A DNA stretch of 64,000 bases from positions 257,393 through 321,392 of the forward strand of contig CAVYDL010000001.1 in assembly GCA_963767275.1 (NCBI GenBank), in the 5' to 3' direction. The position numbers were made by a program, and so were the translations under genes. This document shows positions 23,305 to 64,000 of this stretch, in pieces. The DNA is from an uncultured delta proteobacterium. GTDB lineage: Bacteria > Desulfobacterota > Binatia > UBA9968. A model generated the notes under the pieces. That model did not search any database. It was not told the DNA's origin and was given only the letters and a program-made list of their open reading frames with translations. How positions within the stretch are numbered: position 1 is the first letter of the stretch; each line of letters opens with the position of its first letter.

Positions 23305-23390
23305 TTCGTTCAAGGTTCAAAAGTTCAACGTTCAAGGCCAGAAACAGGAATTCAACGTTGAACTTTTGAACCGTTGAACTGTTGAACGAA
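23305..23390. repeat. GTTCAA/TTGAAC repeat, an imperfect long palindrome.
   Basis: cgttcaaggttcaaaagttcaacgttcaagg ... gaattcaacgttgaacttttgaaccgttgaactgttgaacg. Confidence 0.7.
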
Positions 23391-33424: not shown

Positions 33425-33495
33425 ACACGAAAGGTTCGGATGACCAAATCTTTGAACTTCGTGCTTTTCGTGCCCTTCGTGGGAAAAAACTATTT
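33425..33495. repeat. CACGAAG/CTTCGTG repeat element.
   Basis: aaggacacgaaaggttcgg ... cttcgtgcttttcgtgcccttcgtggg. Confidence 0.5.
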
Positions 33496-35679: not shown

Positions 35680-35712
35680 GCCTTGAACCTTGAATGTTTG
35701 AACCTTGAACCG
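35680..35712. repeat. TTGAAC-type repeat.
   Basis: ccttgaaccttgaatgtttgaaccttgaacc. Confidence 0.6.
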
Positions 35713-44540: not shown

Positions 44541-44588
44541 GCTTGAACGGAGCGCAGGGGTTGAACGGCTTGAACGATTTGAACGCCT
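44541..44588. repeat. TTGAAC tandem hexamer repeat.
   Basis: ggcttgaacggagcgcaggggttgaacggcttgaacgatttgaacgcc. Confidence 0.65.
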
Positions 44589-47308: not shown

Positions 47309-47477
47309 AGTTGTTCCTTCTTAAACCAGAGAGATTTCAAATCCACGCCTAAGCTAACCGAAACTCGCGGAGAGCGTCAAGCAACTAAAGTCCGAATGTT
47401 TGGCATTGACCATTGAACTCAGGTTGTACTAAAGAGGCCCAATCTAAGGCGCATTCGCTATGACGATCGGAGGCTAT

Positions 47478-48503: not shown

Positions 48504-48555
48504 CTAAGATGAATTTCACTGCGAAGCAAGTGCGACGGGATCGCAATTGCGCAGC

Positions 48556-49560
48556 CTATTTGCCAAACGTGTCCTGAAATAGTTTTACGTAGCGGTCGAA
48601 ATTCTCATACACCTGTTCGGCGGTGAATACCGCGGTAAAGCCTTGCGCCAGCTTGGGCGGATCGGGCAGCACATCGATGCGGTCGGGCACGCGTCGCTGC
48701 GCGCGAATAGTTTCCTGACCGGCTTTCGATAATACGAAATCGATAAACAACTTGCCGGCGTTGGAACGCGGCGACTTGGCGGAGAGACCCATCGGATTCA
48801 GGTTGGCATAGACAGGATCGAGCGGCACCCAGTCCACCGGGGCGCCATCGCGCTTGAGACTCTCGAAGTTCTGCGAGTAAGCCGCCAGTGCCGAATTGAC
48901 TTCCCCCGCCGCCACCAATTGCGCCAGGAGTGTGCGGCCGTTGCGCAATTGCGGCTGTTGTTTCGCCAGCTCGCGCATGAACGCCATACCTTTTTCCTGT
49001 CCCATCGCCTGCAACATCACCGCAAACCATTCGTAGGCGGTCTGCACGATGCCGACCTGGCCGCGCCAAAGAGGCTTTAGCAAGTCAGCATGTGATTTCG
49101 GCACATTATCCCGGCTCACCAACCGGCTGTTGTAACCGAGCACGGTGTAGTTGGTATAGATCGACGTCCACATCGCCTGCGGATCTTTATGGCCGGCACG
49201 AATGAACTTGCGCTCCGGCGAATCGTACGCCGCCAACATGCCGCGCTTTTTAAGATTGTGTGCGTAAAAGCCGGTGGTGCTCACGACATCCCATTCGAAC
49301 TTGCCCGCCCGCGACTCGGCGAGGATCCGTTCCATCAACGTGGCATCGCCGGCGCGGTAAAACTGCGCGTCGATCTTTGGATAAAGCTCTTTGAAGCGAT
49401 CGATAATCCGCCGCGCATCGGTCGCGCCGAGAGAAGCGTACCAGGTCAGTTTTCCTTCCGCTTCGGCTTTGTCTTTCCACTCGGAACCGTGTGCGGATGA
49501 AAACCCCAGGCTGAAGACCAGAAACATCATCTGGATGATCTGCAGGAATATATTACGCAT
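48556..49560 (-). CDS. Family-1 extracellular solute-binding protein (Fe3+/polyamine type), orphan.
   Basis: Signal peptide, then EAEGKLTWYASLGATDARRIIDRFKELYPKI... Confidence 0.7.
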   Translation of the reverse strand: MRNIFLQIIQMMFLVFSLGFSSAHGSEWKDKAEAEGKLTWYASLGATDARRIIDRFKELYPKIDAQFYRAGDATLMERILAESRAGKFEWDVVSTTGFYAHNLKKRGMLAAYDSPERKFIRAGHKDPQAMWTSIYTNYTVLGYNSRLVSRDNVPKSHADLLKPLWRGQVGIVQTAYEWFAVMLQAMGQEKGMAFMRELAKQQPQLRNGRTLLAQLVAAGEVNSALAAYSQNFESLKRDGAPVDWVPLDPVYANLNPMGLSAKSPRSNAGKLFIDFVLSKAGQETIRAQRRVPDRIDVLPDPPKLAQGFTAVFTAEQVYENFDRYVKLFQDTFGK

Positions 49561-49594
49561 CTCGGCTGATCGTTGGTTGTACTAAGGCGGCCTA

Positions 49595-50383
49595 TCAAGC
49601 TTTAAGAAACCCGTGCTTCTTGAGAAAATCCAGAACGTGCGAATCGAATGTCGCCGGATCCTCCAGACAGCATGCATGCCCGGCACCTTGGATGGTCCGA
49701 TGCTCGGCGCCGGCGATACGCGTGCTCATTTCTTTGCTGCGCTTGAGCGAATTGTCGAACTCGCCGTTCATGATCAGAACCGGCATTTTCAACTCCGGCA
49801 AGCGCGCCGTCAGGTCGCGGTGCTGCAGAGCATCGAAAATCTCAGCGATGGCGTTTGCGTTGAGACGTGAATCCATTTCAGTATGCATGCTCAACAAGTA
49901 ATTACCGAGCTTGGTCTGCGGGAATTCTTTACTGACCAGATCGGTCAAATGCTGAATGTGAAATTTACCGACACCTTGCCCCACATAACCGTCGATGCGG
50001 CTTTGGTAACGGTCGCCCGGCATGCTGCTGCAGCCGACTAGAATCAACGCTTTAAACAACTCCGGGTGATCGAGGCCCAGCTGTAAACCCATCACGCCGC
50101 CAACACTGACACCGGCAAACACCGCCTGACTCGCACCCTCCTGCCGGCACACCGCAACCACGTCATCGCACAGATCGGTCATGGCCACCGGCGTCGCCGG
50201 CTTGTCGGAGTAGCCGTACGCGCGCAGATCGATGTTGATGACTTTCATGAACGTGGAGAAGTGCGCCACCTGATAAAGAAACATGCGCCGATCGAATGGA
50301 TTGGCATGCATCAACACCAGCGGGAAACCTTCGCCGGAGACTTCGTAATAGTTCTTAACGCCGTTTCTAATGCTATAGGGCAT
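49595..50383 (-). CDS. Alpha/beta-fold hydrolase.
   Basis: PLVLMHANPFDRRMF...FAGVSVGGVMGLQLGL. Confidence 0.75.
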   Translation of the reverse strand: MPYSIRNGVKNYYEVSGEGFPLVLMHANPFDRRMFLYQVAHFSTFMKVINIDLRAYGYSDKPATPVAMTDLCDDVVAVCRQEGASQAVFAGVSVGGVMGLQLGLDHPELFKALILVGCSSMPGDRYQSRIDGYVGQGVGKFHIQHLTDLVSKEFPQTKLGNYLLSMHTEMDSRLNANAIAEIFDALQHRDLTARLPELKMPVLIMNGEFDNSLKRSKEMSTRIAGAEHRTIQGAGHACCLEDPATFDSHVLDFLKKHGFLKA

Positions 50384-50454
50384 GTAGACCTCCGGAGGTT
50401 ACAGACATACGGAACTCACTGCGTAGAGCCGATGAGCTTCTACTCGCCTACAGA

Positions 50455-50590
50455 GCATACAAATGGTTCGTATTCCCAGAACATGCGCCCATCCTCGATT
50501 CCTCATACCCGCGCACGCGGGAATCCAGGTTTGTCTGCGCTGAATTAGCCTGGATACCCACTTTTGCGGGTATGACGGAGATCTCAAGAC
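50455..50590. repeat. Nested palindromic intergenic element.
   Basis: tcatacccgcgcacgcgggaatccagg ... cctggatacccacttttgcgggtatga; each unit is internally palindromic (cccgcgcacgcggg, cccacttttgcggg). Confidence 0.5.
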
Positions 50591-50630
50591 TTTGCGTTGT
50601 CCATATCATCCCCTCACATGGATTTTCAAA

Positions 50631-50665
50631 GAAGCCACGAAGGACACGAAGGGTTCAGATTGAAA
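50631..50665. repeat. CACGAAG repeat unit.
   Basis: gaagccacgaaggacacgaagggttcagattg. Confidence 0.5.
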
Positions 50666-50672
50666 GGTCTGC

Positions 50673-51500
50673 TTAATCGTTGGCGTGGGCCGCAAACGTC
50701 GCCGAGTCTTCGTTGGTGATTTGCAGGCGAAAGCCGCTGGGCTCCCTGAAATAGGTCCCCAACTGATCGTCGCGCCGGCCTTCGCGCTCGCCGTGATCGT
50801 CTCGCTCTTCGATGCCCGCCGCATGGAGCTTCGCGACGATGGCGTGGAAGTCGTCGTTGGTCACGTTGAGGGCAAAGTGGCGGCCGCGCCAGGTCGCCTT
50901 GGTCACGTCACTCAGATCATCGACTTTGTTAACAATCACGCTTTGCCCCGTCGGAAAAACGATTTCCGCCATGGCATCATGCCGCGTTCCCACCGTGCAG
51001 TTCAGAAATTTCTTGTAGAAATCCAGACTGGCGTCGATATCGGTGCTGTCAAAATGCAAATGGTGCAAGCGCGTCTTGGCGATGCCGCTGGCTTTGGTAA
51101 TCTCGAAGAAGTTGCCTTCGGAATCTTGGAAGACCAACCCTTGGTTCCAACAACAACCCAAAGCGCTTTCCGATTTGATCTCGCGCGTGAATACGCCGGC
51201 GCCGCGAATCTTCGCGACCATCGAGTCGTACTCGCCCGCCGGCACTTCGAACGAATGGCGCGGATAGGAATTGGCGCTGTCGCGCTTGGGCAACTGGTTC
51301 TTTCCTTGGGAAAACAGCCCGACATGATTCTCGCCGAGTTTCATGAAAATGCGCGTCATATTCGGCGCGTTCTGGGTTTTCAAAGTGCGCGCGCCGAGCA
51401 CCTCGGTGTAGAATTTTTCGGCCCGGTCCGGCTCCATCACCGCGACCACGAAGTGATCGAGATGATGGACATCGCCATTGGCTTTTGCATTGCCGCTCAT
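50673..51500 (-). CDS. Two-domain VOC-family protein (glyoxalase/extradiol-dioxygenase fold).
   Basis: HHLDHFVVAV...FYTEVLG and a second copy HHLHFDSTDIDASLDFYKKFL. Confidence 0.65.
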   Translation of the reverse strand: MSGNAKANGDVHHLDHFVVAVMEPDRAEKFYTEVLGARTLKTQNAPNMTRIFMKLGENHVGLFSQGKNQLPKRDSANSYPRHSFEVPAGEYDSMVAKIRGAGVFTREIKSESALGCCWNQGLVFQDSEGNFFEITKASGIAKTRLHHLHFDSTDIDASLDFYKKFLNCTVGTRHDAMAEIVFPTGQSVIVNKVDDLSDVTKATWRGRHFALNVTNDDFHAIVAKLHAAGIEERDDHGEREGRRDDQLGTYFREPSGFRLQITNEDSATFAAHAND

Positions 51501-51521
51501 AACTTTCCCTCCTTCTCACGC

Positions 51522-52625
51522 TTATTTTGCTTGCAACGACTGGATCGACTCCGTCGCGGGGAAAATCACCATGCGCTGCTTCGGCAAATGGAGCGTCACA
51601 GTGCCCGTCACCTTGGCATCGGCGTCGTCAGGCAAACTCTTGACGTTGATAATCGTCTCGCCGATCCTAACTTCGCTCATGACATGATCGCCAAGAAAAA
51701 ACGACCCGACCACATTCCCCGCCGGACAATTCTCCGCCGCACCCGGCTGCGCGATCAATTTAACATCTTCGGGGCGAATACCGACGACTACAGCCCCTTC
51801 ATACTGCCGCGCCGCGGCGATGACAAGCGGGCCGATCTCGGTGTCGATGCGGCCGTCGGCAAGCACCTTGCCGTGCAGCCAGTTGATCGAACCGAAAAAC
51901 TCAGCGATCTGCGAATTAGCCGGCGCGCGGTAGAGCTCGAACGGGTTGCCGATCTGTAAAATTTCGCCATGGGCCATCACCGCGATGCGGTCGGCGAGCA
52001 CCATCGCCTCGACTTGATCATGGGTGACATAGAGCGCGGTAATGCCCAATCGGGTGGCGAGTTTCTTGATATTGGTGCGCACCTCTTCGCGCAAACGCGC
52101 GTCCAAATTGCTCAGCGGCTCGTCCATCAGCAGCAAGGCCGGATTGACCGCTAAAGCCCGCGCCAGCGCGACCCGTTGCTGTTGCCCGCCGCTCAACAGG
52201 CGCGCCGGCCGGTTTTCGAAATCGTCCAATTGCACCAAGCTGAGCGCGTAAGCGATCCGAGCTTGCGCCTCGTTTTTGGACAGACGCCTGCGGCCATGGG
52301 TCAGCACCAAGCCGATATTTTCGGCAACGGTGAGGTGGGGCCATATCGCATAGGACTGAAACACCATGCCGATGCCGCGCGCTTCCGGCGGTTCCGAAAT
52401 CCGCCGGCTGCTGGAGAAGACCAGCTTGTCATCGAGTAAAATCTCGCCGCTATCGGGTTTCTCCAACCCGGCGACGCTGCGCAACAGCGTCGTCTTCCCC
52501 GATCCGCTCGGCCCGAGCAGCACGAAGAACTCGCCGCGCTTCACATCCAGGTCAATGCCTTGCAGCGCCGCCACGGCGTGATCGCCGGACTGAAAATTCT
52601 TGCGCAGGCCGGTGATCGAAATCAC
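51522..52625 (-). CDS. ABC transporter ATP-binding protein (PotA/FbpC-like, with a C-terminal TOBE-like domain); GTG start overlaps the permease stop (GTGA).
   Basis: Walker A GPSGSGKTT, signature LSGGQQQRVALARAL, Walker B LLMDEP; RBS ggaggtg upstream of the GTG at 52625. Confidence 0.85.
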   Translation of the reverse strand: MISITGLRKNFQSGDHAVAALQGIDLDVKRGEFFVLLGPSGSGKTTLLRSVAGLEKPDSGEILLDDKLVFSSSRRISEPPEARGIGMVFQSYAIWPHLTVAENIGLVLTHGRRRLSKNEAQARIAYALSLVQLDDFENRPARLLSGGQQQRVALARALAVNPALLLMDEPLSNLDARLREEVRTNIKKLATRLGITALYVTHDQVEAMVLADRIAVMAHGEILQIGNPFELYRAPANSQIAEFFGSINWLHGKVLADGRIDTEIGPLVIAAARQYEGAVVVGIRPEDVKLIAQPGAAENCPAGNVVGSFFLGDHVMSEVRIGETIINVKSLPDDADAKVTGTVTLHLPKQRMVIFPATESIQSLQAK

Positions 52626-54325
52626 GATGACACCTCCGAGAAGCGGCTGCGCCGGCCGAAATAGAGATAGAGAATCACCGCCGGCAGCATGAAGGCGAGC
52701 ACGACGAGATTCGCCGCCGCGGCTTGATTGAGACTGCCGCCCAGCCACAAACCCCAAACGATCATCGGCAAGGTTACGTTGGCCTGGCTCGTCACCAGCA
52801 CCGAAGCCATAGTCAGCTCGCGAAAACACAACAACGCCATCCACAACCAGGCGTAAACCAACGCCGGCCGGAGCAGCGGCAAGAGAATCTTGCGCATTAC
52901 CTGCCAGAGCGGCAGACCGCCGACAAACGCCGCTTCTTCCAGCTCGGGATGAATCTGCGCCAGCGAGTTATTGATGATGCGGGTGGCGAAGCTAATCCGG
53001 CTGATGGTGTAGACAATAATCAGAATCGCCAAGCTGCCGTAGAGCGCCGCCACATCGCGCAAAAGAAACAGCGAGGCGAACACCGCGGCGATGGCGAGAA
53101 TCAGATGCGGCACGGCGTGGGGCAAAAACGCCACGGCGTCGAAGCCGACGCGCCATCTAAGTCCCGAGCGCAGCACCGTCCAGGAAATCGCCAGGCACAG
53201 TATCAACGTCACGGTCGGCACCGTCACCATCAGCACCACGGTATTCCACGCGCCTTGGAAAAGCAGATTCCAGGGCAAGCCGTAAAAATTTCTCAGCGAC
53301 ACCTGTTCCAACGCCGCCCACGAGGGCGGCTGGAAATAGCGCAACAGCGATGCCCAGACCAGCAGGAGAAACGGCAGCAACTTGGCGACGGTAAAATAGC
53401 CGCCTAAAAACAGCCAGGCGAGCAACCAACCGCGCCGGCCCAACTCCACCAGCCGCGGCCGGTAGCCCTTGCCGGTCACCACCGCGTAGCGATGAGAAAA
53501 TTTAAGCGTGCGAAAGTAGCCCCAACTCAACAGCAGCGCCAAAACCACCAACAGGCTGCTCACCGCGCCTGCCATGCCGTAGCTCGGCAGCTCTTCCTGC
53601 GGCTGGATTTTGTAAAAAATAAACGTCGAAAAAGTAAAGATCTTATTCGACATGCCGATGATCGCCGGAACTTCGAACGCCGACAAGCCGATGGTGAAGA
53701 TATAAATCGCCGCGGCGACGATGCCGGGAAACGTCAGCGGCAGAGTGACATAGCGCAACGTGCGCAGGATGCCCAAGCCATGCACCCGCGCCGCTTCTTC
53801 CAGCGCCGGGTCCATGCTGCGATAGGTCGCCACGATCATAATGAAGGCGATCGACGAAAGGCCCAGCCCTTCGACCCAACCCATGCCGACCAGCGAGGCG
53901 ATGTTGAACGGCGCCTGCGCCAAGCCGAAAAGGTCAATGAGAAATTTATTGATGATGCCGATGCGCGGATGGAGCAAGAACACCCAGCCCATGGCGGTAA
54001 AAAACGTCGGCACCAAAGCGCCTATGGTCGCGAGAGCAAAAATCAAATTTTTGCCAGGCAAATCCGTGCGCTCGACTAGCCACGCCATCGGCACGGCGAA
54101 AAACAGCGCGATCAAGACCGTCGTGGTGGCGAAGCCTAAGGTGTTGAGCAGGGTGCGGTAGGTGGAGCCGTCGGTGAAAAGCTCGCGATAATGCTTCAGC
54201 GTGTAAACAACCGGATCGCCCGGACTGCCTTGCCAAAACCCCATCCAAAAGATAATCAGCAGAAACGCCAGCACCGGCAGCAGACTCGCCACCGACACCG
54301 CGACAAACAACCAGCGACCCTTCAA
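52622..54325 (-). CDS. ABC transporter permease, fused double domain (Fe3+ FbpB/PotBC-like).
   Basis: 567 aa, about 12 TM segments, two EAA-like loops (ALEEAARVHGL..., ELEEAAFVGG...). Confidence 0.8.
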   Translation of the reverse strand: MKGRWLFVAVSVASLLPVLAFLLIIFWMGFWQGSPGDPVVYTLKHYRELFTDGSTYRTLLNTLGFATTTVLIALFFAVPMAWLVERTDLPGKNLIFALATIGALVPTFFTAMGWVFLLHPRIGIINKFLIDLFGLAQAPFNIASLVGMGWVEGLGLSSIAFIMIVATYRSMDPALEEAARVHGLGILRTLRYVTLPLTFPGIVAAAIYIFTIGLSAFEVPAIIGMSNKIFTFSTFIFYKIQPQEELPSYGMAGAVSSLLVVLALLLSWGYFRTLKFSHRYAVVTGKGYRPRLVELGRRGWLLAWLFLGGYFTVAKLLPFLLLVWASLLRYFQPPSWAALEQVSLRNFYGLPWNLLFQGAWNTVVLMVTVPTVTLILCLAISWTVLRSGLRWRVGFDAVAFLPHAVPHLILAIAAVFASLFLLRDVAALYGSLAILIIVYTISRISFATRIINNSLAQIHPELEEAAFVGGLPLWQVMRKILLPLLRPALVYAWLWMALLCFRELTMASVLVTSQANVTLPMIVWGLWLGGSLNQAAAANLVVLAFMLPAVILYLYFGRRSRFSEVSS

Positions 54326-54422
54326 GATTGGGCTCCGCGCGTAGAGTCGGAGTGATGGAGTATTGGAGTGCCGGGTTTCAATTGCATCACTCCATCATGC
54401 CAAAACCCCGCGCTTCTGCGTT

Positions 54423-55478
54423 TCAGTTCCCTGCCAATATTTTCTGAAACTTCTGGCGGATGCGCGAATGTTCCTCGGCGTTCTTGAAGACTTCCGATAC
54501 CGAATAGGCGGTGAACTTGACGCCGCGCTTTTCCTGCTCGGCGACAAATTTCTGCATCGGCGTGCCCTTGACCAGATGGGAACTGCTGCGCTCGGTGTTG
54601 TAAAGAATATCCTGGCCGTCTTTACTGAGCAAAAACGCGGCAAGCAATGTTGCGGCGTTGGCATTCCGCGCGTTAGTCGGCACCGTCACGTACCAATAGG
54701 AAAGAATTCCGGCGTCGCGAAAAACCTGGCCATCCACCGGCCCGCCCTTTTCCTTGGCTTCCTGGGGCGCGGCGAGATCGCAGTTAAAGACCAGCATGGC
54801 GAACTCGCCCGCGGCGATGCGGTCATCTTCGCCGCAGCGAATCAACCCGGTGACCTGCTTGACGAATTTCTCCAAGAACGCGGTGGTTTTTTCCTCGCCC
54901 CAAATCATCGCCAGCCGATCGAAAGACGCCGCATAGGGCGTCGACGCGATCTTGCCTTTCCATTTGGGGTTGAGCACATCCTCGACCCGCTGCGGGATAT
55001 CCTTGCCGACCACCATCTTCGAGTTGAAAGTGAAGCCGGGCGTGCGCGTCGTGACGATCAAGACTTTGTTGTCGAAATCGATCATCGGCGCGGTGATATG
55101 ATTGAAAGTCTTGCTCCACTCCACGCTTTTGAGCGACATGCGCGCGACGTGATTCTCCGACCCGACAAATAAATCCGATGACGACGGCTGCCCGGCTTTC
55201 GCTTCTTGAATAATTCGGCTGGCAAACTGCGGCATCGCAGGACCTGGGGTGTACTTGAATTGGAGGTTCAATCCGTACGCCTTGTTAAACGCCTTCTCCA
55301 GCGTCGCCGCTCCCTCGATACCGCCCATAGTCCCTGTGCCCCAGCTCAGAATCAGCTGGCCTTCCTTCTTCGCCCCCTCGATCAATTGGGCCCGTGTCTG
55401 GGTAAAACCATCGGTCGGCGAAAGCGCAAGCGCGATAGTCAAAGCACTCAGCACCCACAGTAATCTCGGTCTAAGCAT
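54423..55478 (-). CDS. Family-1 extracellular solute-binding protein, cognate to the downstream permease and ATPase.
   Basis: Signal peptide plus KKEGQLILSWGTGTMGG...; first gene of the SBP-permease-ATPase triplet. Confidence 0.75.
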   Translation of the reverse strand: MLRPRLLWVLSALTIALALSPTDGFTQTRAQLIEGAKKEGQLILSWGTGTMGGIEGAATLEKAFNKAYGLNLQFKYTPGPAMPQFASRIIQEAKAGQPSSSDLFVGSENHVARMSLKSVEWSKTFNHITAPMIDFDNKVLIVTTRTPGFTFNSKMVVGKDIPQRVEDVLNPKWKGKIASTPYAASFDRLAMIWGEEKTTAFLEKFVKQVTGLIRCGEDDRIAAGEFAMLVFNCDLAAPQEAKEKGGPVDGQVFRDAGILSYWYVTVPTNARNANAATLLAAFLLSKDGQDILYNTERSSSHLVKGTPMQKFVAEQEKRGVKFTAYSVSEVFKNAEEHSRIRQKFQKILAGN

Positions 55479-55500
55479 GGCAATTCTCCTCTGTGCCTAA

Positions 55501-55572
55501 CTGGAACGGTTAGAACACGTGGAACTCTTCGATCTTCCGACCTTGAACTTTGAACCTTGAACCTTTGAACGA
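55501..55572. repeat. TTGAAC tandem hexamer repeat.
   Basis: ccttgaactttgaaccttgaacctttgaacg. Confidence 0.7.
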
Positions 55573-55575
55573 TCT

Positions 55576-56538
55576 TTAGAGATCCATCTTCTTCCCCAGC
55601 CCGCGCTGCACCGCTTCATCATAAAGCCACGCCGCCAACGCCATGTCACCGTAGCCGCCCTGGGACTCGCGAAAAATGTTAATTTCGTCGCGGCTGGCGC
55701 GCCCGACCGCCTGACCGGTGACCAATTCGCCGAGCTCGGGCACCCGGCTCCAAGAAAGCTTGCCTTCGGCAGCGAGCTCGACCAATGGCAGCGCCGCCGA
55801 TTTATCGGCGTAGTTGCGCTCCTGCTCTTGGCTGCCGACCACGGTGCGCGCGGCTTTCAAATGCAGATCGCGGCTCAACTCCGTCGGCTTACCCATGCTG
55901 CTGACATGGGTGCCCGGCTCGACCCAATCTTCGGGAAAGATCGGCGTCAGCGAATTGGTCGCGGTGAGAATAACGTCCATGCCGCGCACTGCTTGCTCCG
56001 GCCGGTCGACACCGCGCACCGTGATGCCGAGTAACTGTTCGCCCTCGGCGCAAAATTTCTTGCGCCGCTCGGGGTCGCGGCTCGACACATAGATCTCATT
56101 AATCGGCCGCACGGTTTGCAGCGCCTTGAGAATGCCGAAGGCATTACGGCCGACGCCAAACAAGCCGAGCTTCTTGGAGTCTTGCCGCGCCATATGCTTG
56201 GCCGCGATGGCAACCACGGCCGCGGTACGAAGTGTGCCGAAGGGAAATCCCATGAACGCCAACAGCTCGCCGCTATCGGCATCGAACAAGGTTGCGTACA
56301 TTTTATCGCCGCCGCCGAGTCCGCTGTTGGGCCCCATTCGAACGCCGACTCGATGCTGTTTGAGCACCGCGCCGGACACGATGCGCAATCCTTTGCTCGG
56401 CCCGACGGTCACATGATACGGCGCATGGGGCACAATCTGGCCATTGACCTGTTGCCGGTGGGCATCCTCGATCAACTCGATGGCCTGAGTAAGGCCGAGC
56501 AGCGGTTTCAATTCATCGCGACTTAGAAATAAAGCCAT
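55576..56538 (-). CDS. Ornithine cyclodeaminase/mu-crystallin-family protein, paralog 1.
   Basis: LGLFGVGRNAFGILKAL (Rossmann) ... about 320 aa, OCD_Mu_crystall architecture. Confidence 0.75.
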   Translation of the reverse strand: MALFLSRDELKPLLGLTQAIELIEDAHRQQVNGQIVPHAPYHVTVGPSKGLRIVSGAVLKQHRVGVRMGPNSGLGGGDKMYATLFDADSGELLAFMGFPFGTLRTAAVVAIAAKHMARQDSKKLGLFGVGRNAFGILKALQTVRPINEIYVSSRDPERRKKFCAEGEQLLGITVRGVDRPEQAVRGMDVILTATNSLTPIFPEDWVEPGTHVSSMGKPTELSRDLHLKAARTVVGSQEQERNYADKSAALPLVELAAEGKLSWSRVPELGELVTGQAVGRASRDEINIFRESQGGYGDMALAAWLYDEAVQRGLGKKMDL

Positions 56539-56579
56539 CGTAACTCCGATTTTGCAGCAGACTATCTCGAGCAGGTCCG

Positions 56580-56613
56580 ACGTTGAACTTTTGAACCTTG
56601 AACCTTTGAACGG
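56580..56613. repeat. TTGAAC repeat.
   Basis: cgttgaacttttgaaccttgaacctttgaacgg. Confidence 0.7.
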
Positions 56614-56616
56614 CAG

Positions 56617-57835
56617 TTATTTCTGCGTAACCGCCAGTTCATGCGCCCGCTTGCCTAACCGTCGCCCACCGTTCTTGGTCACGACCACGGTATCGCCCCA
56701 CTGGCAGATATATTCGCCGTCCGCCGAAATCGCCGACGGCTTGCAGATAAAAACCATGTTCTCGCGCATCGCCACCGCGAGCTGGCGCGGGCTCTTGGCG
56801 TGGGGCGTAATGATCGGTCCGTCGTCCCCCTGGCCGCGGCCATGCATGTTGAGGACGCCTTGGGCGCCCGCCGCCGGGCCCCTTTTCGGCGCGGCACTTT
56901 GCACCGCACTCCTAGTCAACTCGGCGAGCTCGCCGACGGTGACGCCGGGCTTCAGATTTTCCACCACGCGATTGAACACTTCGCGCTGTACTTTGATCAA
57001 CTCGGCCTGCACCGGATCGATCACTTCGACAAACACCGGCTGCACGCCCTGGGCCCGGTACCCGATCCACGACGCTTCGATCTCATTGATGATCGCGTCG
57101 CCGCGCTCGAGCAGCCGCATGCTCGGCCGGGTCAAGGTGCGCTTGGGATTTTTTCCGGACACCCAGAAACAGTGCACCGGCAACTCGGAACCGTTGCGCG
57201 TCATGGCGTAATGCATCGCCGCCCAGACTTCCCAATCCTTGACGCCGACTTTGGCCGCTTCGATTTCCGCTTGAATCGCCAGTTCGTTGATTTCCATTGA
57301 CTTGGTGAGCACGCCGATTTCTTCGTCGCTTTTCACATAACGCACTTCGTCGAGGATTGCCGTGGCGTCGACCAATTGCGCCTGCGGGAAGCCTTCGCGG
57401 ATCTGCTTCCAGGTGCCGTAGAAAATCGTTCCTTCCGGCGTGCGCGTGCCTTCGACCTCGCCCAGACCGGTTATGCCGATACGGCCGCGATCGATCGCCC
57501 AATTCTTTCAACCGCTCGACAATGACCTTGCCATAATTACGCCGCGCCTCGCGCACGTCGGTGACCCAGTCCTGCACCGTCGGCCAACGCGGCGCCGGCG
57601 AAGTCGCGATCGCCGTCACTTCGCCGTCAATCGGAAAAACCGCCGCGAGATCGGGTTCGCCGCCGCCGCAATGCGTCAGGTAGCGCGTGTTGGCTTGATA
57701 GTCCGCCGAATGGCCGCTGTTCTGCGGCGTGACGATGACGTCAAGATTCTGCTGGCGCATCAGCTCACGGACAGCTTGCCAACGCCGGTCCCGTTCAGCG
57801 AGTGAAAAACGCGGATAGGGATAAAGTTCTGCCAT
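56617..57835 (-). CDS. M24-family metallopeptidase (creatinase/prolidase/ectoine-hydrolase-like), paralog 1; apparent frameshift near 57480-57520.
   Basis: The N-domain frame 57083-57835 and the catalytic frame 56617-57375 align collinearly with the intact paralog at 57962-59140. Confidence 0.65.
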
Positions 57836-57869
57836 GAATTATGTTCTGAGGGTCAATGAAATATTTTTC

Positions 57870-57950
57870 TCACCACGAAGGCACGAAGAGCACAAAGTTC
57901 GGAGGTTATTTATCCGAACCCTTCGTGCCTTCGTTGGTGAACAATCCTCT
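57870..57950. repeat. CACGAAG/CTTCGTG hairpin element.
   Basis: caccacgaaggcacgaagagcacaaagttcgg ... ccgaacccttcgtgccttcgttggtgaa. Confidence 0.6.
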
Positions 57951-57961
57951 TTTTTTTGCGG

Positions 57962-59140
57962 TCAAACATCGATTACAACCAATTTCATATCGCGCTTGCC
58001 CAAACGGCGCGCGCCGTTTGCGGTCACCGTCACGGTATCACCGACGCTGGCGCGGCCTTTGCCCTGGGTCGGCCGTACTTGTGGTTTGAGTATGAAAGTC
58101 ATGCCGGCCTTAAGCTCAATCTTGGCAAATCGCTCGAGATCCTTGTCACCCATCAGCGCCGGCCCATCGTCACCGAGCCCGCGCGCGTGCATCATCGGAT
58201 GGCTCCAAGAATATGGCCCGGCGCCTTCCACCGTGCGCGTGTAGGTATCGAACAACGTGCCGAAAGTCACGCCTGGTTTCATGGCAGCGAGAATCGCATC
58301 GAAACAGGCATGCGAGACTTCGACCATCGCTTGATAAGCCGGATCGGGTTTACCGACCACCGCCGGACTCACCGCCTGCGCCGCATAACCGCCATATTTG
58401 GCTTCGATCTCACCGACAAGATTGTCGCCGTTTTGAATCACGTAATCGGTGGGCACAAAAGAGCTATTGAACAGATTGGGGCCGGCGCTGAGAAAAAATA
58501 AGGTCGGCAACTCGCCGCCGTTGGATAACATGGCATGAAGCATGGTCGCATAGACTTCTTTTTCGCTCACGCCCGGCTTGGCGGTTTGCTTCATCGCATC
58601 AATGGCTTTCTCGATAATCGCCGCAGAGCGCTCTAGAAAAGACACTTCCTCTGAGCTCTTGATGGCACGAATCTCCTGCATCATCTCGGTGGCGTTGACC
58701 AGCTTGGCATGGGGAAACGCCTCTTGAATCGCCTTGACCGACGTATAAGGAATGATCCCCTCCGGCGCGCGCACCAAACCGGCAAGCCCGGAAACTCCGA
58801 TGGTGCCTTTGTCGAGGCCCAATTCTTTGATGCGCTCGATGGCGTTTTGACTCCAGCGGTTGCGCCCGTCACGCACGTCCGCCACCCAATTCTGCGCCTT
58901 CTGCCACCAGCCGGCGCGATTGAAAACATATGCAGTAACGTCGCCCTGGGCGGGGAAAACGGTAAACATCTCGGTGGCGAAACCGCCGATGTTGGTCAGA
59001 TAGCGCGAGTCGCCTTGCAGCTGCTCCCAGCGCCCCGTGTTCGCCGGCAGCAGCAACACATCGATGCCGCGCTGGGCCATCTCCGCGCGCACCAGTTGGT
59101 AACGCCGATCTCTTTCTTGAATCGATAACTGTGGAATCAT
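57962..59140 (-). CDS. M24-family metallopeptidase (creatinase N-domain plus pita-bread catalytic domain), intact.
   Basis: 392 aa; ...HARGLGDDGP... metal-ligand region and creatinase-like N-domain. Confidence 0.75.
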   Translation of the reverse strand: MIPQLSIQERDRRYQLVRAEMAQRGIDVLLLPANTGRWEQLQGDSRYLTNIGGFATEMFTVFPAQGDVTAYVFNRAGWWQKAQNWVADVRDGRNRWSQNAIERIKELGLDKGTIGVSGLAGLVRAPEGIIPYTSVKAIQEAFPHAKLVNATEMMQEIRAIKSSEEVSFLERSAAIIEKAIDAMKQTAKPGVSEKEVYATMLHAMLSNGGELPTLFFLSAGPNLFNSSFVPTDYVIQNGDNLVGEIEAKYGGYAAQAVSPAVVGKPDPAYQAMVEVSHACFDAILAAMKPGVTFGTLFDTYTRTVEGAGPYSWSHPMMHARGLGDDGPALMGDKDLERFAKIELKAGMTFILKPQVRPTQGKGRASVGDTVTVTANGARRLGKRDMKLVVIDV

Positions 59141-59185
59141 CGTTTCCTCACTTGTTCGGAATCTCAGATTTAAAATGTTCAGTCA

Positions 59186-59232
59186 CGACTTGAACGAAGC
59201 GCAGCGGTTGAACGGCTTGAACGTTTTGAACG
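59186..59232. repeat. TTGAAC tandem hexamer repeat.
   Basis: cgacttgaacgaagcgcagcggttgaacggcttgaacgttttgaacgcg. Confidence 0.7.
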
Positions 59233-59236
59233 CGCT

Positions 59237-60355
59237 TCATTTTCCCGACCGCTGCCGCGCGGCATTGATCAAATCGCCCACCGGTTTCCACTCCATCCAG
59301 TCGTGCCGGCTGATTTCTATGTAGTTGACATCTTTCTTGCGCCGCGCCGCTTCGGGGACATACTCCAGCGGCAAGTCTTCACGCATCGACGTCGTGATTT
59401 CGTCCTCGATGGTGTTATTCGCCTGGCGAAAGGCGATCTGCCCTTCGCGCGAGAGATACCAATTGATAAAAACTTTCGCGGCGTTGGCATGGGGCGCATT
59501 GTTCATTAAGGCAATCGCGCCGTTGTTGGCGCCGATACCGGGAGCCTCTTTGAAGTGATAGACGCTGGCTTCCTCCACCGGTAAACCTTGTTCGTGAGCA
59601 CGGCGCAGGCGGCAGAGGAAACAAATCGGCGCTTTGCCGGCGGCGAGCCAGTCGGTGCCCTGGCGAAAATCGCTGAAATAGGTCACGTCCATTTCGCTGT
59701 AAAAGCGCTCGAGAAACTTCGGCCCAATCTGCGGATGATGATACATGAACAGCAATGCCGTCGAGACGTAGTTGGCCCGCGGCCACAAGCCGATCATCTT
59801 GCCTTTCCATTTGGCATCGAGGAGATCCCAGACCGATTTGATCGAATCGAGATTGACCAGCTTGGTATTGTAATAAACCGGCGGGCCATACTTGGTGCTC
59901 TGGTAGACGAAGACATATTGCCCTTCAGGATCGACATACCGGTGTTTGCTTTTCCACCACTTCGACAGATCGGTCACCTCGGCCAGCATCAGCGCCGGCG
60001 CCAGCGGATCGAGAGTCTTGCCGCGGTGCAGACTGTTGTACGTCGCGCCCGGTGCGCCGAGCACGACATCGGGGTAATATTGGCTCGCCCGTCGCTCCGC
60101 CATGATCTTGGTGACGATTTCGCTGGTGGTGCTGATCGCCACGGCGTTCAACTTGATTTTGGGAAATCGCTTTTTGAAGGCATCCCAAATCACCTGAAGC
60201 TCGCCGACGGAGTTGGTCGCATAGACGCTGACCTCACCTTCCTTCTCCGCCGCCCGCACGGCATCGTCCCAACGCGCCTGCGCCGCCATAACGTCCTGGC
60301 CAAATAACAGGGTCACGAATGCTAGTGGCAACCAACTCTTCATCCAAATCTTCAT
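59237..60355 (-). CDS. Family-1 extracellular solute-binding protein.
   Basis: Signal peptide, then ...EKEGEVSVYATNSVGELQVIWDAFKKRFPKIKL... Confidence 0.7.
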   Translation of the reverse strand: MKIWMKSWLPLAFVTLLFGQDVMAAQARWDDAVRAAEKEGEVSVYATNSVGELQVIWDAFKKRFPKIKLNAVAISTTSEIVTKIMAERRASQYYPDVVLGAPGATYNSLHRGKTLDPLAPALMLAEVTDLSKWWKSKHRYVDPEGQYVFVYQSTKYGPPVYYNTKLVNLDSIKSVWDLLDAKWKGKMIGLWPRANYVSTALLFMYHHPQIGPKFLERFYSEMDVTYFSDFRQGTDWLAAGKAPICFLCRLRRAHEQGLPVEEASVYHFKEAPGIGANNGAIALMNNAPHANAAKVFINWYLSREGQIAFRQANNTIEDEITTSMREDLPLEYVPEAARRKKDVNYIEISRHDWMEWKPVGDLINAARQRSGK

Positions 60356-60392
60356 TTTTTATAGCTCTTTATAGCTCCTGATCTCTGAGGCG

Positions 60393-61370
60393 CTACTCAG
60401 TGCTGATCTCCTCGCCCAAGCCGCGCCGCTTAGCCTCCTCGAAGGCGTACACCGCCAAAGTTAGGTCGCCATAACCGCCCTGGGAGTCGCGAAAGATTCT
60501 CAAGCTGCGCGCCAAATCCGGCACCGCCACTTTACCGGTCACGACATCGCAAAATTCCGCGACGCCGTCCCAGGAAAGCTTGCCCTGCTGCGACAAGCGA
60601 ATCAGTGGCTGATCGAGCTTGGTGTCGTAATAGTTGAGTTCATGAGTTTTGCTGGGGACGCTCACCAGGTCAGCCATGAGATAAACGTCATCGTCAAACT
60701 CATTGGGCCGGCCGATGCCGAACACCGCTAGCCCAGGCCGAAGCCATTGGCCATGCAGGGCCGGCGCCGGCGAGTTAGTGCTCACTAGGACAAAATCGGC
60801 TTGCGCGATGGCCGCTTGCGGCGAGGCAACTGCGATCACCGAAGTTTTCAGCAGCGCACTGGCCGTACGCGCGAAGCCCTCGCGATTCTCCGCGCTGCGG
60901 CTGTAAACCAACACGCGCTCGATGGGACGCAACGCGCAGGCCGGCTCGAGAATCGGCAACGCCAGCCGGCCGCTGCCGATCATCGCCACGGTTTTCGCTT
61001 TGGCATCGGTGAAGCGCTCGATGGCCAGGCCGACAGTGGCGCTGATACGCAACTCGCTAAACGGGTAGCCCATTAACGACAGCAGCTTGCCCGAGCTGAT
61101 CTCAAACAACAAAGCCAACGCGCCGCCGCCGGTAACGCTGACCCGCAAACCGTTTCTATCCTGCGCCTGCAAGCCGCCGACGACCATACGCATGCCGCGA
61201 TTCATAAACCGCAGCGGCGCCACTTGCTGCACCTGACCGGCCGCTTGTTCGCGAAATGTTTGTTCGAGCACCGCCATCGCTTGGCGCAGATCCAACAAAC
61301 CCGAAACTACAGATCGTTTTAGCAGCAGCGTCACGACGCGCAACTTATCGCTGTCGAGGAAATCACACAA
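60393..61370 (-). CDS. Ornithine cyclodeaminase/mu-crystallin-family protein, paralog 2 (start uncertain).
   Basis: VAMIGSGRLALPILEPA ... FRDSQGGYGDLTLA, parallel to paralog 1 (FRESQGGYGDMALA). Confidence 0.7.
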   Translation of the reverse strand: MCDFLDSDKLRVVTLLLKRSVVSGLLDLRQAMAVLEQTFREQAAGQVQQVAPLRFMNRGMRMVVGGLQAQDRNGLRVSVTGGGALALLFEISSGKLLSLMGYPFSELRISATVGLAIERFTDAKAKTVAMIGSGRLALPILEPACALRPIERVLVYSRSAENREGFARTASALLKTSVIAVASPQAAIAQADFVLVSTNSPAPALHGQWLRPGLAVFGIGRPNEFDDDVYLMADLVSVPSKTHELNYYDTKLDQPLIRLSQQGKLSWDGVAEFCDVVTGKVAVPDLARSLRIFRDSQGGYGDLTLAVYAFEEAKRRGLGEEISTE

Positions 61371-61397
61371 CCTATCGACAAACGCCGCCCTGCGCCG

Positions 61398-62072
61398 TCA
61401 GTGCTGAATCTCATGAACCATGCTTTTTCCAGGGCAATACGTGTAGGTGTGATGGTCGTAGCGTTTTTTCTCGGACCTGTCGGTCACGCTCCAGTAGAAT
61501 TCCAGACAATGGGGCTCATTACCCAATATGAAGTCGATCTGCTTGATCGTGACCGATTCCACCCTTTCAGAATCCCTCGATCCCTCATAAATCTTATAGC
61601 CATGCTTTTTGGTTTCGCCTTCTTTCCACAAGCCGAGGGGAAATTTAAGACCGCCCGACGATGTCCGAGTGTCTTGATTGGGCCGTCCATCGTAAAGCCG
61701 GCCGAGACCGGTGCGTTCTTCGTTAATGACAAACAGTTGCCATTTTGCACCGCCCCTTTGAGGATTAATTCGCTCATAGACGGCATGGTTCTGCCCGGTC
61801 GCTGGATGTTTCCAGTCGGTAGGCCCTTTGATCGAGTAAGCGGCTTTATTGTGCCGATAGTTACCGTCGACCTTCGGCATTTTAAGTTCCTGCTTGCCAT
61901 CCCACTCGGCGCCGGTCCAAAGCTCCACCGGAATGAACCGTTCTTTTGTTTCCACATTCGTCGCGTCGTCCCATGGATTCGCTGCCGCCGTGACGGGCGC
62001 GGTAGTCGAAACCAACAGGCCCAGGATCAAACCACTCGAAATAATCCCGTACGTGCTAATCGCGCGTTTCAT
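61398..62072 (-). CDS. Secreted hypothetical protein (signal peptide, Trp/Tyr-rich, lower GC).
   Basis: MKRAISTYGIISSGLILGLLVSTTAPVTAAANPW...; no recognisable domain. Confidence 0.45.
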   Translation of the reverse strand: MKRAISTYGIISSGLILGLLVSTTAPVTAAANPWDDATNVETKERFIPVELWTGAEWDGKQELKMPKVDGNYRHNKAAYSIKGPTDWKHPATGQNHAVYERINPQRGGAKWQLFVINEERTGLGRLYDGRPNQDTRTSSGGLKFPLGLWKEGETKKHGYKIYEGSRDSERVESVTIKQIDFILGNEPHCLEFYWSVTDRSEKKRYDHHTYTYCPGKSMVHEIQH

Positions 62073-62123
62073 AGCGCACCGCCAATGGTTACGCTGTTGC
62101 ATTTGAAGTTGTCTTAAATAATT

Positions 62124-63152
62124 TCATTGCGCCAATATCTTTTTGATCCGCTCGACCACTTCTGCCGGCTGTTCGATGACTTCTTTCGCGATCTTGGCGA
62201 GTTGCTCGCCGCTAACCGGTGTAATATCGAGTTTCTTTTGCTTCGCCTCATCGAGCAGCGCTGGATCGAGCATTGCTTTTGCAAATCCGTCACGCAATAG
62301 CTTCGTTCTATCCGGCGGCGTCGCCGGATGGGTCACCATCGGCCGGCCAAGCTCACCGGAGCCGAGCATGACGACGGCGACACGGCGGCTCAACTCCGGG
62401 GTTTTGTATTCGTTCATGAGGTCTTTGAGCAGCGGCGTATCGGGCAACTGCGGGTCTTTCTTCTCGCCGGTTTGCATGAGTATCCGCACCAGGTTGGTTT
62501 TGCGCCAGGTGTGATAGGGCTCGCGGGAAAAATATGCCTGGGTGGTGAATGACCGGCAGACGACTTCGTTGCGCTCCGTGGCGATGTCGATTTCATTGCC
62601 GCCGGCATAGCCGGTGACGATGGTGAACTTGGTCCCGAGCAGCTCTTCGAGCAGGCGCGGAATGTAATGGCCGCTGGTGCCGGTGCCGGTGGCGCCGCAC
62701 TTGGGCGGCTCCTTGGCGTTGCGAATATCCTGCATGCTCTTATACGGCGCATCGCTGCGCATATAGAGCAGATGCTCCGACTTATCCGGACTGGCGAGCC
62801 AGGTGAACTTCGTCCAGTCGAATTTGATTTCTTTGTTACCCTGGAGCTGATTGAAATAGTGCGCCGGATTGATCGACGCGATGGTCAAGCCGTCCGGCTT
62901 GGCGACGCTGTAAACATAGTTGGCCGCGACGATGCCGCCGGCCGCCGGCATGTTTTGCATGATCACATTCGGATTGCCAGGAATATGTTTGCCAATATGG
63001 TTCGCCAATAGGCGCGAATAAATATCGTAGGCCGTGCCGGTCCCCGATCCGACAATAAAATTGATAGTCTTGCCCTGATAATAGGGTGTTTGCGCGCTCG
63101 CCTCCGCGCCCGGGACTAACAGTAATACCGCCAACAAAAGCAGTCGTTTCAT
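62124..63152 (-). CDS. Bug/TctC-family periplasmic solute-binding protein, intact.
   Basis: YYQGKTINFIVGSGTGTAYD...IMQNMPAAGGIVAANYVYSVAKPDGLTIA...TGYAGGNEIDIATERNEVVCRSF...LPDTPLLKDLMNEYK...ITPVSGEQLAKIAKEV. Confidence 0.75.
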   Translation of the reverse strand: MKRLLLLAVLLLVPGAEASAQTPYYQGKTINFIVGSGTGTAYDIYSRLLANHIGKHIPGNPNVIMQNMPAAGGIVAANYVYSVAKPDGLTIASINPAHYFNQLQGNKEIKFDWTKFTWLASPDKSEHLLYMRSDAPYKSMQDIRNAKEPPKCGATGTGTSGHYIPRLLEELLGTKFTIVTGYAGGNEIDIATERNEVVCRSFTTQAYFSREPYHTWRKTNLVRILMQTGEKKDPQLPDTPLLKDLMNEYKTPELSRRVAVVMLGSGELGRPMVTHPATPPDRTKLLRDGFAKAMLDPALLDEAKQKKLDITPVSGEQLAKIAKEVIEQPAEVVERIKKILAQ

Positions 63153-63785
63153 CTCATTTTCCTTTCCATAAAAAGCTTGCCAAGTCTATTCGATCCTCGC
63201 GCCGCTACTCGTTACCATCAATTGAGTTAAATTGCCAAACCAGCCGCCGCGTCAGTCGCCAGGAGTCCCATTCAAATTCTTGCAGTCGATGAAAACGCGG
63301 TGACGCAATCGAGCCGGTTTGAACGACGGGAAGCGCCGCTGACCGCCTCGCGCTCTGGCGCCTGGCCTCCGGTTATCGTGAACAAGACAAGGATCGTTAT
63401 CAGTCGAAGACTATCGCACCGAAAGAATTTACTTCTTGTTCAAGTCGGGTCGTTTGCTGCACCGTCGCGATACCCCAATTCTCGAGCCAAGCCAACATGA
63501 TTCCTAGGACACAACAAATTCGCTCGCAGTGTCGTCGCAGCATCGAAAACTGTTCACCGTATCCAGCGGGACCCGCCTGCACCGAATGGAAAGCGCTTGC
63601 CATTGATTGACAACCCGGCCATAAATACTGTTGCCTGAGGGAGCAAGTTTTCCCGCGATAGATCGAAGATTCTCGGCTAGGTCCGATTGGCAGGAGTTTC
63701 GCCAAATGAGGTAGTTTGGCCTGTCATGACCGGTATGCAACTTGCTCCAATTCCGGCCTACTAAACTTTCACTGGGAATTTATTG

Positions 63786-64000
63786 ATGGATCATAACGAC
63801 AACTGCAAAGGATGGTTGGGCAAAGGCTCCATCGTTCTGGGGCTGGGACTACTTGTATTTGGCGCGATCTTCTACAGCACGGGTGGCGGTACGAAGACTT
63901 CGACGAAACCGGCGGCAGCGCCGCTCGATCGAAATGCGCAAAGGCCGGTGCGCATCATGAACATGGCCCTCGGCCCGATGGTATTCCTCGCCCGCGAACT
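63786..64000 (+). CDS. 5' fragment of a hypothetical membrane-anchored protein; runs off the window.
   Basis: ATG at 63786, MDHNDNCKGWLGKGSIVLGLGLLVFGAIFYSTGGG... one TM helix; open to the window end. Confidence 0.3.
   Translation, partial: MDHNDNCKGWLGKGSIVLGLGLLVFGAIFYSTGGGTKTSTKPAAAPLDRNAQRPVRIMNMALGPMVFLARE

Follow-up and report, generated by a model that had tools for sequence, protein, structure and literature searches.

A 64,000-nt stretch of the genome of an uncultured Binatia bacterium (contig CAVYDL010000001.1, positions 257,393 to 321,392; hereafter the window, whose own numbering is used for all coordinates) carries a cluster of minus-strand genes that combine a predicted importer with several putative enzymes. 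A Pfam scan and an ORF list give nine open reading frames (ORFs) with ornithine cyclodeaminase (OCD), substrate-binding protein (SBP), M24, permease, ATPase and VOC domains. Their coordinates are exactly those of a first-pass annotation of the same DNA, and each of its domain calls is borne out by Pfam. In transcription order, the cluster begins with OCD2 (60393–61370), a putative NAD(P) oxidoreductase of the OCD/mu-crystallin family, followed by SBP2 (59237–60355), a periplasmic family-1 SBP with a signal peptide and SBP_bac_8, SBP_bac_1 and SBP_bac_6 matches, and by M24a (57962–59140), a two-domain protein of the creatinase/prolidase fold (Creatinase_N plus Peptidase_M24). M24b (56617–57835) is a paralog of M24a with a broken frame: the C-terminal half of Peptidase_M24 lies at 56617–57375 and a 250-amino-acid ORF precedes it in another frame. 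Next come OCD1 (55576–56538), of the same family as OCD2, SBP1 (54423–55478), also a periplasmic family-1 SBP with a signal peptide (SBP_bac_6 and SBP_bac_11), a fused double-domain ATP-binding cassette (ABC) permease (52622–54325; two BPD_transp_1 stretches), an ABC ATPase with a GTG start (51522–52625; ABC_tran plus TOBE_2) and VOC1 (50673–51500), a two-domain protein of the glyoxalase/dioxygenase fold (Glyoxalase plus Glyoxalase_6). The permease stop codon overlaps the ATPase start, as the proposed GTGA coupling requires. The genes fall into module A (OCD2-SBP2-VOC2-M24a, with VOC2 missing in the window) and module B (M24b-OCD1-SBP1-permease-ATPase-VOC1), and their content agrees with the earlier suggestion of an uncharacterised uptake-plus-catabolism route on one strand.

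M24a scores 88.2 and 38.8 bits against the Pfam models Peptidase_M24 and Creatinase_N, above the gathering thresholds. Homologs form 814 clusters, which carry generic names only, and 217 clusters (50% identity) match at E ≤ 1e-30; public annotations name these proteins Xaa-Pro peptidases throughout. The best PDB sequence matches are archaeal prolidases (1pv9, 2e-20; 1e-34 with a family profile), with which fold and length are shared, and the profile matches creatinase (1chm, 7.5e-16) and DoeA (3e-12) much more weakly. The metal site nevertheless differs from that of prolidase. The Pyrococcus furiosus ligands D209, D220, H284, E313 and E327 were checked in the printed 1pv9 alignment. In every alignment D209, D220, E313 and E327 correspond to E244, Q255, K352 and G367 of M24a, with the same pattern in M24b and in orthologs; the fifth ligand, H284, is ambiguous, as HMMER aligns it with L322 and MAFFT with H318. 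In the M24 proteins, Ser or Leu replaces the conserved His that lies before the first ligand (H192 in prolidase). With at least four of the five ligands lost, a dinuclear metal centre should be unable to form, so that M24a and M24b, on present alignments, are not metallopeptidases or prolidases and would not act as Xaa-Pro dipeptidases. The first-pass annotation had stated that its proposal would fail if the M24 genes grouped with generic Xaa-Pro dipeptidases; prolidases are indeed the best matches, but the metal centre is gone.

Many of the closest cluster representatives, with identities as low as about 35%, share the signature E244-E/D246-Q255-H318-R320-D/E324-D325-K352-G367-D368. The replacements are no random decay, and they mark a distinct and sizeable uncharacterised M24 clade. 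An AlphaFold (AF2) model of M24 has the two-domain creatinase/prolidase fold (pLDDT 68.6, pTM 0.75), and Foldseek matches it at a probability of 1.0 to prolidases, DoeA, creatinase and DddP (TM 0.58–0.67), without separating them; the model is least reliable in the loops specific to the family. The proteins share with creatinase the Creatinase_N domain, the pita-bread fold (TM ~0.65) and the missing dinuclear metal site; they differ in their remote sequences, in a signature of their own (E-E/D-Q-H-R-D/E-D-K-G-D) and in having Ser or Leu at the His position. Nearby M24 clusters (P0137, P0148, P0153, P0160 and similar), about 35–40% identical to M24a, have E-S-H-H...E-G-D in the ligand columns. 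This pattern may represent a mononuclear site, and several non-peptidase subfamilies may surround the clade. Plasmid homologs at 24–29% identity were considered as guides to function and set aside; they lie in unrelated clusters and offer no transferable function.

OCD1 and OCD2 belong to their superfamily by score (139.8 and 80.6 bits against PF02423, gathering threshold 24 bits) and by Rossmann motif (GVGRNA and GSGRLA, respectively). Against the NCBIfam equivalog models for EutC, LhpI, BhcD, SbnB, archaeal AlaDH and OCD they reach 27–132 bits, with cut-offs of 266–500; against the LhpI/Pyr2C-Pip2C reductase models (NF045512, NF004793 and NF005603; cut-offs 266–400) OCD1 scores 47–109 bits and OCD2 27–56. 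The nearest PDB entries of OCD1 are Thermococcus Pyr2C reductase (6t3e, 7e-29) and archaeal alanine dehydrogenase, and those of OCD2 are Pyr2C reductase and mammalian mu-crystallin, a ketimine reductase. In the numbering of Pseudomonas putida OCD, checked against the printed 1u7h sequence, the carboxylate-binding R112 is kept in both proteins and the cyclodeaminase Asp228 of the GGD motif is missing: OCD1 has Pro (SMGKPTE) and OCD2 has GIGRPNE, with a CRYM-like GRP. On these grounds both proteins are better taken for imine reductases or amino-acid dehydrogenases that use NAD(P) than for ornithine or lysine cyclodeaminases (EC 4.3.1.12 and 4.3.1.28). They resemble the imine reductases of the family (6t3e, LhpI, CRYM and archaeal AlaDH) in the Rossmann motif, the carboxylate-binding Arg and the absence of the cyclodeaminase Asp, and differ in falling below equivalog cut-offs and in forming Binatia clades of their own.

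The transport genes have the components of a type I ABC importer, namely SBPs with signal peptides, a BPD_transp_1 permease and an ABC_tran ATPase; among the cluster proteins, only the SBPs have signal peptides when the N-termini are read from the sequence. All parts lie nearest to the PhnS2/T2/U2, AfuA, FbpA and PotD group and always below the cut-offs. SBP2 scores 47.5 bits (cut-off 392.75), the permease, whose best NCBIfam match is PhnU2, 105.6 (593.25) and the ATPase 331.7 (457.7) against the PhnS2, PhnU2 and PhnT2 models. Shared with AfuABC, FbpABC and PhnS2T2U2 importers are the family-1 (cluster D-like) SBP, the fused two-domain permease and the TOBE ATPase; the Binatia system differs in its scores below family cut-offs and in having two or three very divergent SBPs per permease. 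The description of the SBPs as family-1 proteins, not of the EhuB/UehA type, holds, and they are AfuA/FbpA-like. Two SBPs had been thought to feed a single permease and ATPase: there is indeed one fused permease and one ATPase, while the SBPs number three and are divergent, with SBP3, encoded further downstream, 26% identical to SBP2 over 305 amino acids. The nearest structures to SBP1 are the pyridoxal-phosphate-binding P5PA (6wce, 3e-6) and the sugar-phosphate-binding AfuA (4r72, 6e-6); SBP2 has weak matches to Fe3+-type SBPs (E ~5e-4), and a ligand cannot be deduced from the PDB matches of either protein. VOC1 falls in the VOC superfamily by both of its Pfam domains (57.9 and 49.4 bits).

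The cluster recurs widely among relatives. A 538-kb soil-metagenome contig in ENA (L001, the sister contig) encodes an identical OCD1, and 46 loci were recovered when genomes were scanned with M24a, almost all of them from metagenome-assembled genomes (MAGs) labelled Candidatus Binatia, "delta proteobacterium" or Thermodesulfobacteriota. The full layout, including flanking TctC and hydrolase genes, is present in about 20 of the 46, at 70–95% protein identity in tblastn comparisons of all cluster proteins. The comparison shows a real locus that is vertically conserved in uncultured soil Binatia. Deeper-branching Binatia, several of them represented by complete chromosomes, have simpler loci. 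One arrangement (L031–L041 and L046) runs alpha/beta-hydrolase, ATPase, two unknown genes of which one is a bicupin, M24a, LLM monooxygenase, OCD2-type, SBP and permease; another (L029 and L043) runs bicupin, M24a, OCD1-type, M24c, M24b-type, SBP1, permease, ATPase and VOC. The bicupin gene, encoding about 335 amino acids with weak HgmA_N, JmjC_2 and Cupin_2 matches, lies directly upstream of M24a in all of these deeper loci (for example L029 5933–6928, L033 8779–9873 and L031 16886–18910), with one or two paralogs downstream, and is absent from the window. In relatives, too, VOC1 closes module B. In most of them a second two-domain VOC gene (VOC2, 288 amino acids, 24% identical to VOC1 over its full length) occupies about 1.1 kb between SBP2 and M24a; it was located at L012 8955–9821 and at the equivalent position in L006–L008, L013–L017, L020 and L042. 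At this position the window has a 96-nt spacer with a repeat array, and VOC2 has been lost in its sublineage.

The cluster had been described as an internally duplicated OCD-SBP-M24 module that was duplicated in place. The paralogs do not fit this description. OCD1 and OCD2 are 37% identical, M24a and M24b 40%, and SBP1 and SBP2 about 31% over 159 amino acids, which is under half of their length; the gene orders are also unequal (OCD-SBP-M24 versus M24-OCD-SBP). A neighbour-joining tree with the Thermococcus Pyr2C reductase as root separates OCD1 from OCD2 in two deep clades, and the single OCD of a one-module lineage falls in each of them; M24a, M24b and M24c form separate clades in the M24 tree. 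Because these clades are shared with one-module lineages, the OCD1/OCD2 and M24a/M24b splits are older than the divergence of the Binatia lineages. The trees point to old paralogy with two parallel sets of genes, and two loci were possibly merged into the present arrangement. The idea of two parallel modules has itself been strengthened by VOC2, which is part of module A in most relatives.

Similar reasoning applies to M24b, which had been reported as frameshifted. The frame break is present in the sequence and consists of one extra base at 57496–57497, where the window has GGGCGATC and L001 has GGGGATC; in the surrounding alignment the window reads GGGCGATCGATC, L001 reads GGGGATCGATC and orthologs read GG(C/T)GTCGAxC. 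Its removal gives a full-length M24b ORF of about 404 amino acids. A 4-bp GATC tandem duplication was considered as the cause and rejected; alignment with L001 and the orthologs gives a one-base difference, and the frame was restored by coincidence, since −4 ≡ −1 modulo 3. Positions 45569–64000 of the window and L001 differ by 0.4–2.6%, with 70 gap openings over 13.7 kb, and L001 has an indel of its own in M24b, an extra G about 100 bp upstream. With L001 set aside, 21 other loci carry M24b, and 17 of them have it intact in one frame; L008 is counted with the 17 even though the gene runs off the end of its contig. In the broken copies (L002, L014, L020, L001 and the window) the frame is lost at unlike places, and the three named genome records among them (L002, L014 and L020) are all MFD-labelled MAGs. 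The break is most likely an assembly indel, and M24b is accordingly most likely a functional gene and not a decaying one. The ATPase, alpha/beta-hydrolase and orf234 genes also differ in length between the window and L001, and other frame breaks in the window should be treated with suspicion.

The eight spacers between the nine genes measure 37, 96, 126, 78, 97, 97, −4 and 21 nt in transcription order. TTGAAC is enriched in the window, as had been noted, with 79 sites compared to 31.5 expected and no shuffle of 100 reaching 79. The accompanying claim that spacers of 40–100 bp are mostly filled by TTGAAC arrays proved too broad: the range is −4 to 126 nt, arrays occupy three of the eight junctions and hairpins occupy two others. 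Each of the three arrays, which read GTTCAA on the minus strand, has four units and begins 5 nt past a stop codon, that of SBP2 (59190–59231, 9-nt spacing), M24b (56583–56611, 7–8-nt period) or OCD1 (55543–55570). Their spacers fold worse than shuffled sequences (z +1.67 for SBP2–M24a, +1.53 for M24b–OCD1 and +0.70 for OCD1–SBP1). Over the window and the related loci together (740 kb), 42 of 44 arrays are intergenic and 32 are sense-oriented within 120 nt past a stop codon, with a modal offset of 6, which leaves five bases from the stop codon to the first unit. Most genomes with the doubled layout also carry arrays at M24b–OCD1 and OCD1–SBP1, where the unit drifts between GTTCAA, GTTCCA and ATTCCA; in L007 a run of N (~6550–6725) covers the M24b–OCD1 spacer, so array conservation was not scored there. 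The deeper Binatia loci are without arrays, and Rfam has no match for them. We regard the arrays as a real, lineage-specific spacer element that probably acts at the RNA level; it might be a standby or linker region without structure, a point of entry for RNase or a platform to which a protein binds. Other arrays of 3–4 units with a period of 7–9 nt occur in the window at 4647–4732, 22707–22748, 23308–23387, 35683–35710 and 44543–44584, and two GTTCAA arrays are inverted pairs that form hairpins.

Two of the remaining junctions have predicted structures. The M24a–M24b spacer contains a strong hairpin (57870–57940; dG −47.1 kcal/mol, z −6.75) with a CACGAAGG...CCTTCGTG palindrome. This gap is the longest and most variable, ranging from 85 to 447 nt in relatives, often with the same palindromes, which fits a boundary between modules. 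The hairpin is a probable mark of that boundary and could act as a terminator, an attenuator or an mRNA-stabilising element. The motif CCTTCGTGG occurs four times in the window compared to 0.57 expected, in this hairpin and at 50635–50643, 17468–17476 and 33474–33482; it looks like a REP-like element. The SBP1–permease spacer (54326–54422) contains a stem-loop (dG −32.2 kcal/mol, z −2.64) that 2 of 200 shuffles fold as well as. In ABC operons, a stem-loop that follows the SBP gene is a classic feature.

We consider the Binatia locus, with a probability of roughly 0.55, to be a system, built from two ancient parallel modules, that takes up one or two related small, polar, nitrogen-containing carboxylates and breaks them down in the cytoplasm. 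A small nitrogen-containing carboxylate is the most reasonable guess for the substrate. In such a system, the single permease and ATPase would receive ligand from periplasmic SBPs that each have a specificity of their own. A cytoplasmic, metal-independent enzyme of the M24 (pita-bread) fold would then cleave a C-N bond of the zwitterionic substrate, by analogy with creatinase and ectoine hydrolase. To our knowledge, these are the only two characterised non-peptidase relatives, and both cleave a C-N bond. The OCD enzyme would act on the M24 product as an NAD(P)-dependent imine/ketimine reductase or secondary-amine dehydrogenase, and the VOC enzyme would carry out a further isomerisation or cleavage. 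Hairpins past M24a and SBP1 may set differential mRNA stability or partial termination, and the unstructured GTTCAA arrays could be linkers with an influence on how the next cistron is translated or processed.

Several observations weigh against this interpretation. Every enzyme scores far below all curated equivalog cut-offs, and the cluster lacks any regulator, aminotransferase, deacetylase or dehydrogenase with which it would make up a recognisable pathway. The M24 proteins have also lost the conserved His at the H192 position and could carry out other chemistry or be non-catalytic; AF2 confidence falls to pLDDT <50 in the putative active-site loops (210–228, 241–255 and 315–331). Other members of the M24 clade occur among Rieske oxygenases, cupins, LLM monooxygenases and class II aldolases, which points to oxidative aromatic or heterocyclic catabolism over amidine hydrolysis. 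A single transcript across the cluster is likewise a prediction. A bolder proposal is that M24a and M24b represent a large metal-independent branch of the pita-bread fold, paired in Binatia with imine-reductase OCDs and VOCs in an undescribed pathway for nitrogen compounds, with the arrays as a new cis-acting RNA spacer that tunes polycistronic expression; we regard this as tentative and somewhat doubtful.

Pairing of OCD and M24 genes has been described for eut/doe clusters (PMC3187862), with eutD-eutC-atf operons in Bacillaceae (PMC13188858), and a literature search for OCD plus creatinase/M24 clusters and for Binatia returned ectoine papers only. Within that literature the pairing is documented nowhere else, DoeA_2 is nominally the best NCBIfam match of M24a and DoeA is among the top structural matches, all of which favour uptake and catabolism of ectoine or hydroxyectoine, with M24 as EutD/DoeA and OCD as EutC, the analogy drawn in the first-pass annotation. 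The scores are, however, below the cut-offs by factors of four to twelve: M24a reaches 49.2 bits against TIGR02993 (613) and 73.3 against NF038259 (575), the C-terminal part of M24b 64.7 against NF038259 (575), and OCD1 and OCD2 114.3 and 58.2 against the EutC model TIGR02992 (471.65). The family profile also prefers prolidases to DoeA by the margin given above (1e-34 versus 3e-12). Domains of EutA, EutB, EutE/DoeB, DoeC and DoeD are absent among the genes at 48.5–63.2 kb and the called genes of the sister contig, and no EnuR or AsnC is found nearby. Ectoine clusters (ehu/ueh plus eutABCDE/doeABCD) are alike in setting an SBP-dependent importer beside a non-peptidase hydrolase of the M24 fold and an OCD protein, with cytoplasmic enzymes acting on a zwitterionic nitrogen compound; the Binatia locus differs in its AfuA/FbpA-like SBPs, which are not of the EhuB, UehA or TeaA type (nor is the transporter of the Ehu, Ueh or Tea type), in lacking those partner enzymes and a regulator, and in having a two-domain VOC. 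The cluster resembles the ectoine system in logic without being a member of it, and ectoine itself is a very improbable substrate. Use of proline peptides, with the M24 proteins as ordinary Xaa-Pro dipeptidases and the OCDs recycling proline-derived imino acids, would agree with the archaeal prolidase matches and with the public annotations. It is difficult to reconcile with the clade-wide replacements D209E, D220Q, E313K and E327G, with loss of the H192 position and with SBPs that are not peptide binders of the Opp/Dpp type, and we judge it improbable. The combination of arginase and OCD is known from opine catabolism, and a guanidino acid could be handled in a similar way if M24 freed urea and OCD cyclised the resulting diamino acid to proline or pipecolate. 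Creatinase is a metal-free M24 amidinohydrolase (PMC3187862), which is in keeping with such a route; Asp228 of GGD is nonetheless absent in both OCDs, no urease or urea carboxylase lies nearby and creatinase is a distant match (profile 7.5e-16), so that a guanidino route also appears improbable.

Oxidative catabolism of an aromatic or N-heterocyclic carboxylate has to be considered as well. The M24 protein would then catalyse a non-amidine reaction (ring hydrolysis, decarboxylation or isomerisation), VOC would be a ring-cleaving dioxygenase and OCD would reduce a cyclic imine. The N-terminal domain of VOC1 keeps a His/His/Glu pattern in its sequence, and the deeper Binatia loci have the bicupin just upstream of M24a and an LLM monooxygenase between M24a and OCD. 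In soil and wood metagenomes, two additional members of the clade have Rieske oxygenase, SDR, cupin, Amidohydro_1/2, Aldolase_II and GST genes as neighbours, and one of the two also has a GntR-DHDPS-OCD group 5–6 kb away. The closest M24 homolog outside Binatia, on plasmid pl4 of Sphingobium sp. AntQ-1 (L048 12001–13174; 39–46% identity in two frames), forms one end of a flavin reductase-cupin-FAH-aldolase II-LLM cluster with Tn3 transposases on its flanks. That copy is frameshifted and partly annotated, however, and its cupin and LLM neighbours have no detectable orthology to the Binatia ones. The window cluster has no oxygenase besides the possible VOC, and Binatia genomes are so crowded with genes of this kind that adjacency may be incidental; an oxidative route is unlikely on balance, and uptake and breakdown of a small nitrogen-containing carboxylate remains our preferred interpretation. 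As for the history of that system, a recent in-place duplication of the OCD-SBP-M24 module with one M24 copy decaying would account for two of each gene type and for the broken frame of M24b. It is contradicted by the trees, in which each OCD and M24 type falls in a clade common to one-module lineages, and by the low identity (31–40%) and unequal order of the paralogs; decay is opposed by a single-base break that is missing from the sister contig in a gene intact in 17 of 21 other loci. We regard a recent duplication as highly improbable.

Binatia are abundant uncultured soil bacteria, and their heterotrophic capacities have mostly been inferred from generic annotation. The present locus is a familiar kind of system, which offers an enzyme-discovery lead and an annotation correction and no major surprise. 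Soil metagenomes contain hundreds of proteins annotated as "Xaa-Pro dipeptidase" that, by the alignments above, cannot be metallopeptidases because the metal centre is gone. The locus also provides a concrete conserved gene set for substrate discovery, with two SBPs for ligand screening and three enzyme types. Frameshifts in long-read MAGs call for caution and should not be read as pseudogenes. Arrays after stop codons are a clean, positionally conserved feature and a testable candidate for an operon-internal expression signal.

The operon had been given nine genes; these stand, and the same-direction run is longer, extending from a TctC gene (62124–63152) to an alpha/beta-hydrolase and a third SBP (48556–50383). 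Its first gene encodes a TctC/Bug-family SBP (Pfam TctC, 60.7 bits) and is kept upstream of OCD2 in relatives. Next is orf234 (61398–62102, minus strand), which encodes 234 amino acids without a Pfam family match and has tblastn matches limited to L001 and L002; since it is confined to the closest relatives, it is probably not a core part of the cluster. The ORF of OCD2 agrees with the earlier coordinates, and its TTG start at 61370 is doubtful: homology begins at residue 13, which corresponds to a GTG at 61334, the probable true start. Downstream of VOC1, the alpha/beta-hydrolase (49595–50383) and SBP3 (48556–49560; family-1), both minus-strand genes assigned by Pfam and kept downstream in several relatives, are probable accessory genes. 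A consensus promoter scan gave no more sites than shuffled sequences, an intrinsic terminator scan found none convincing within the cluster, and neither Rfam nor a tRNA scan gave a match in the window. No TctA/TctB membrane partner for the TctC genes was seen among the called neighbours. Two TctC/Bug SBP genes, at 62124–63152 on the minus strand and 47460–48503 on the plus strand, are 51% identical to each other and bracket the cluster.

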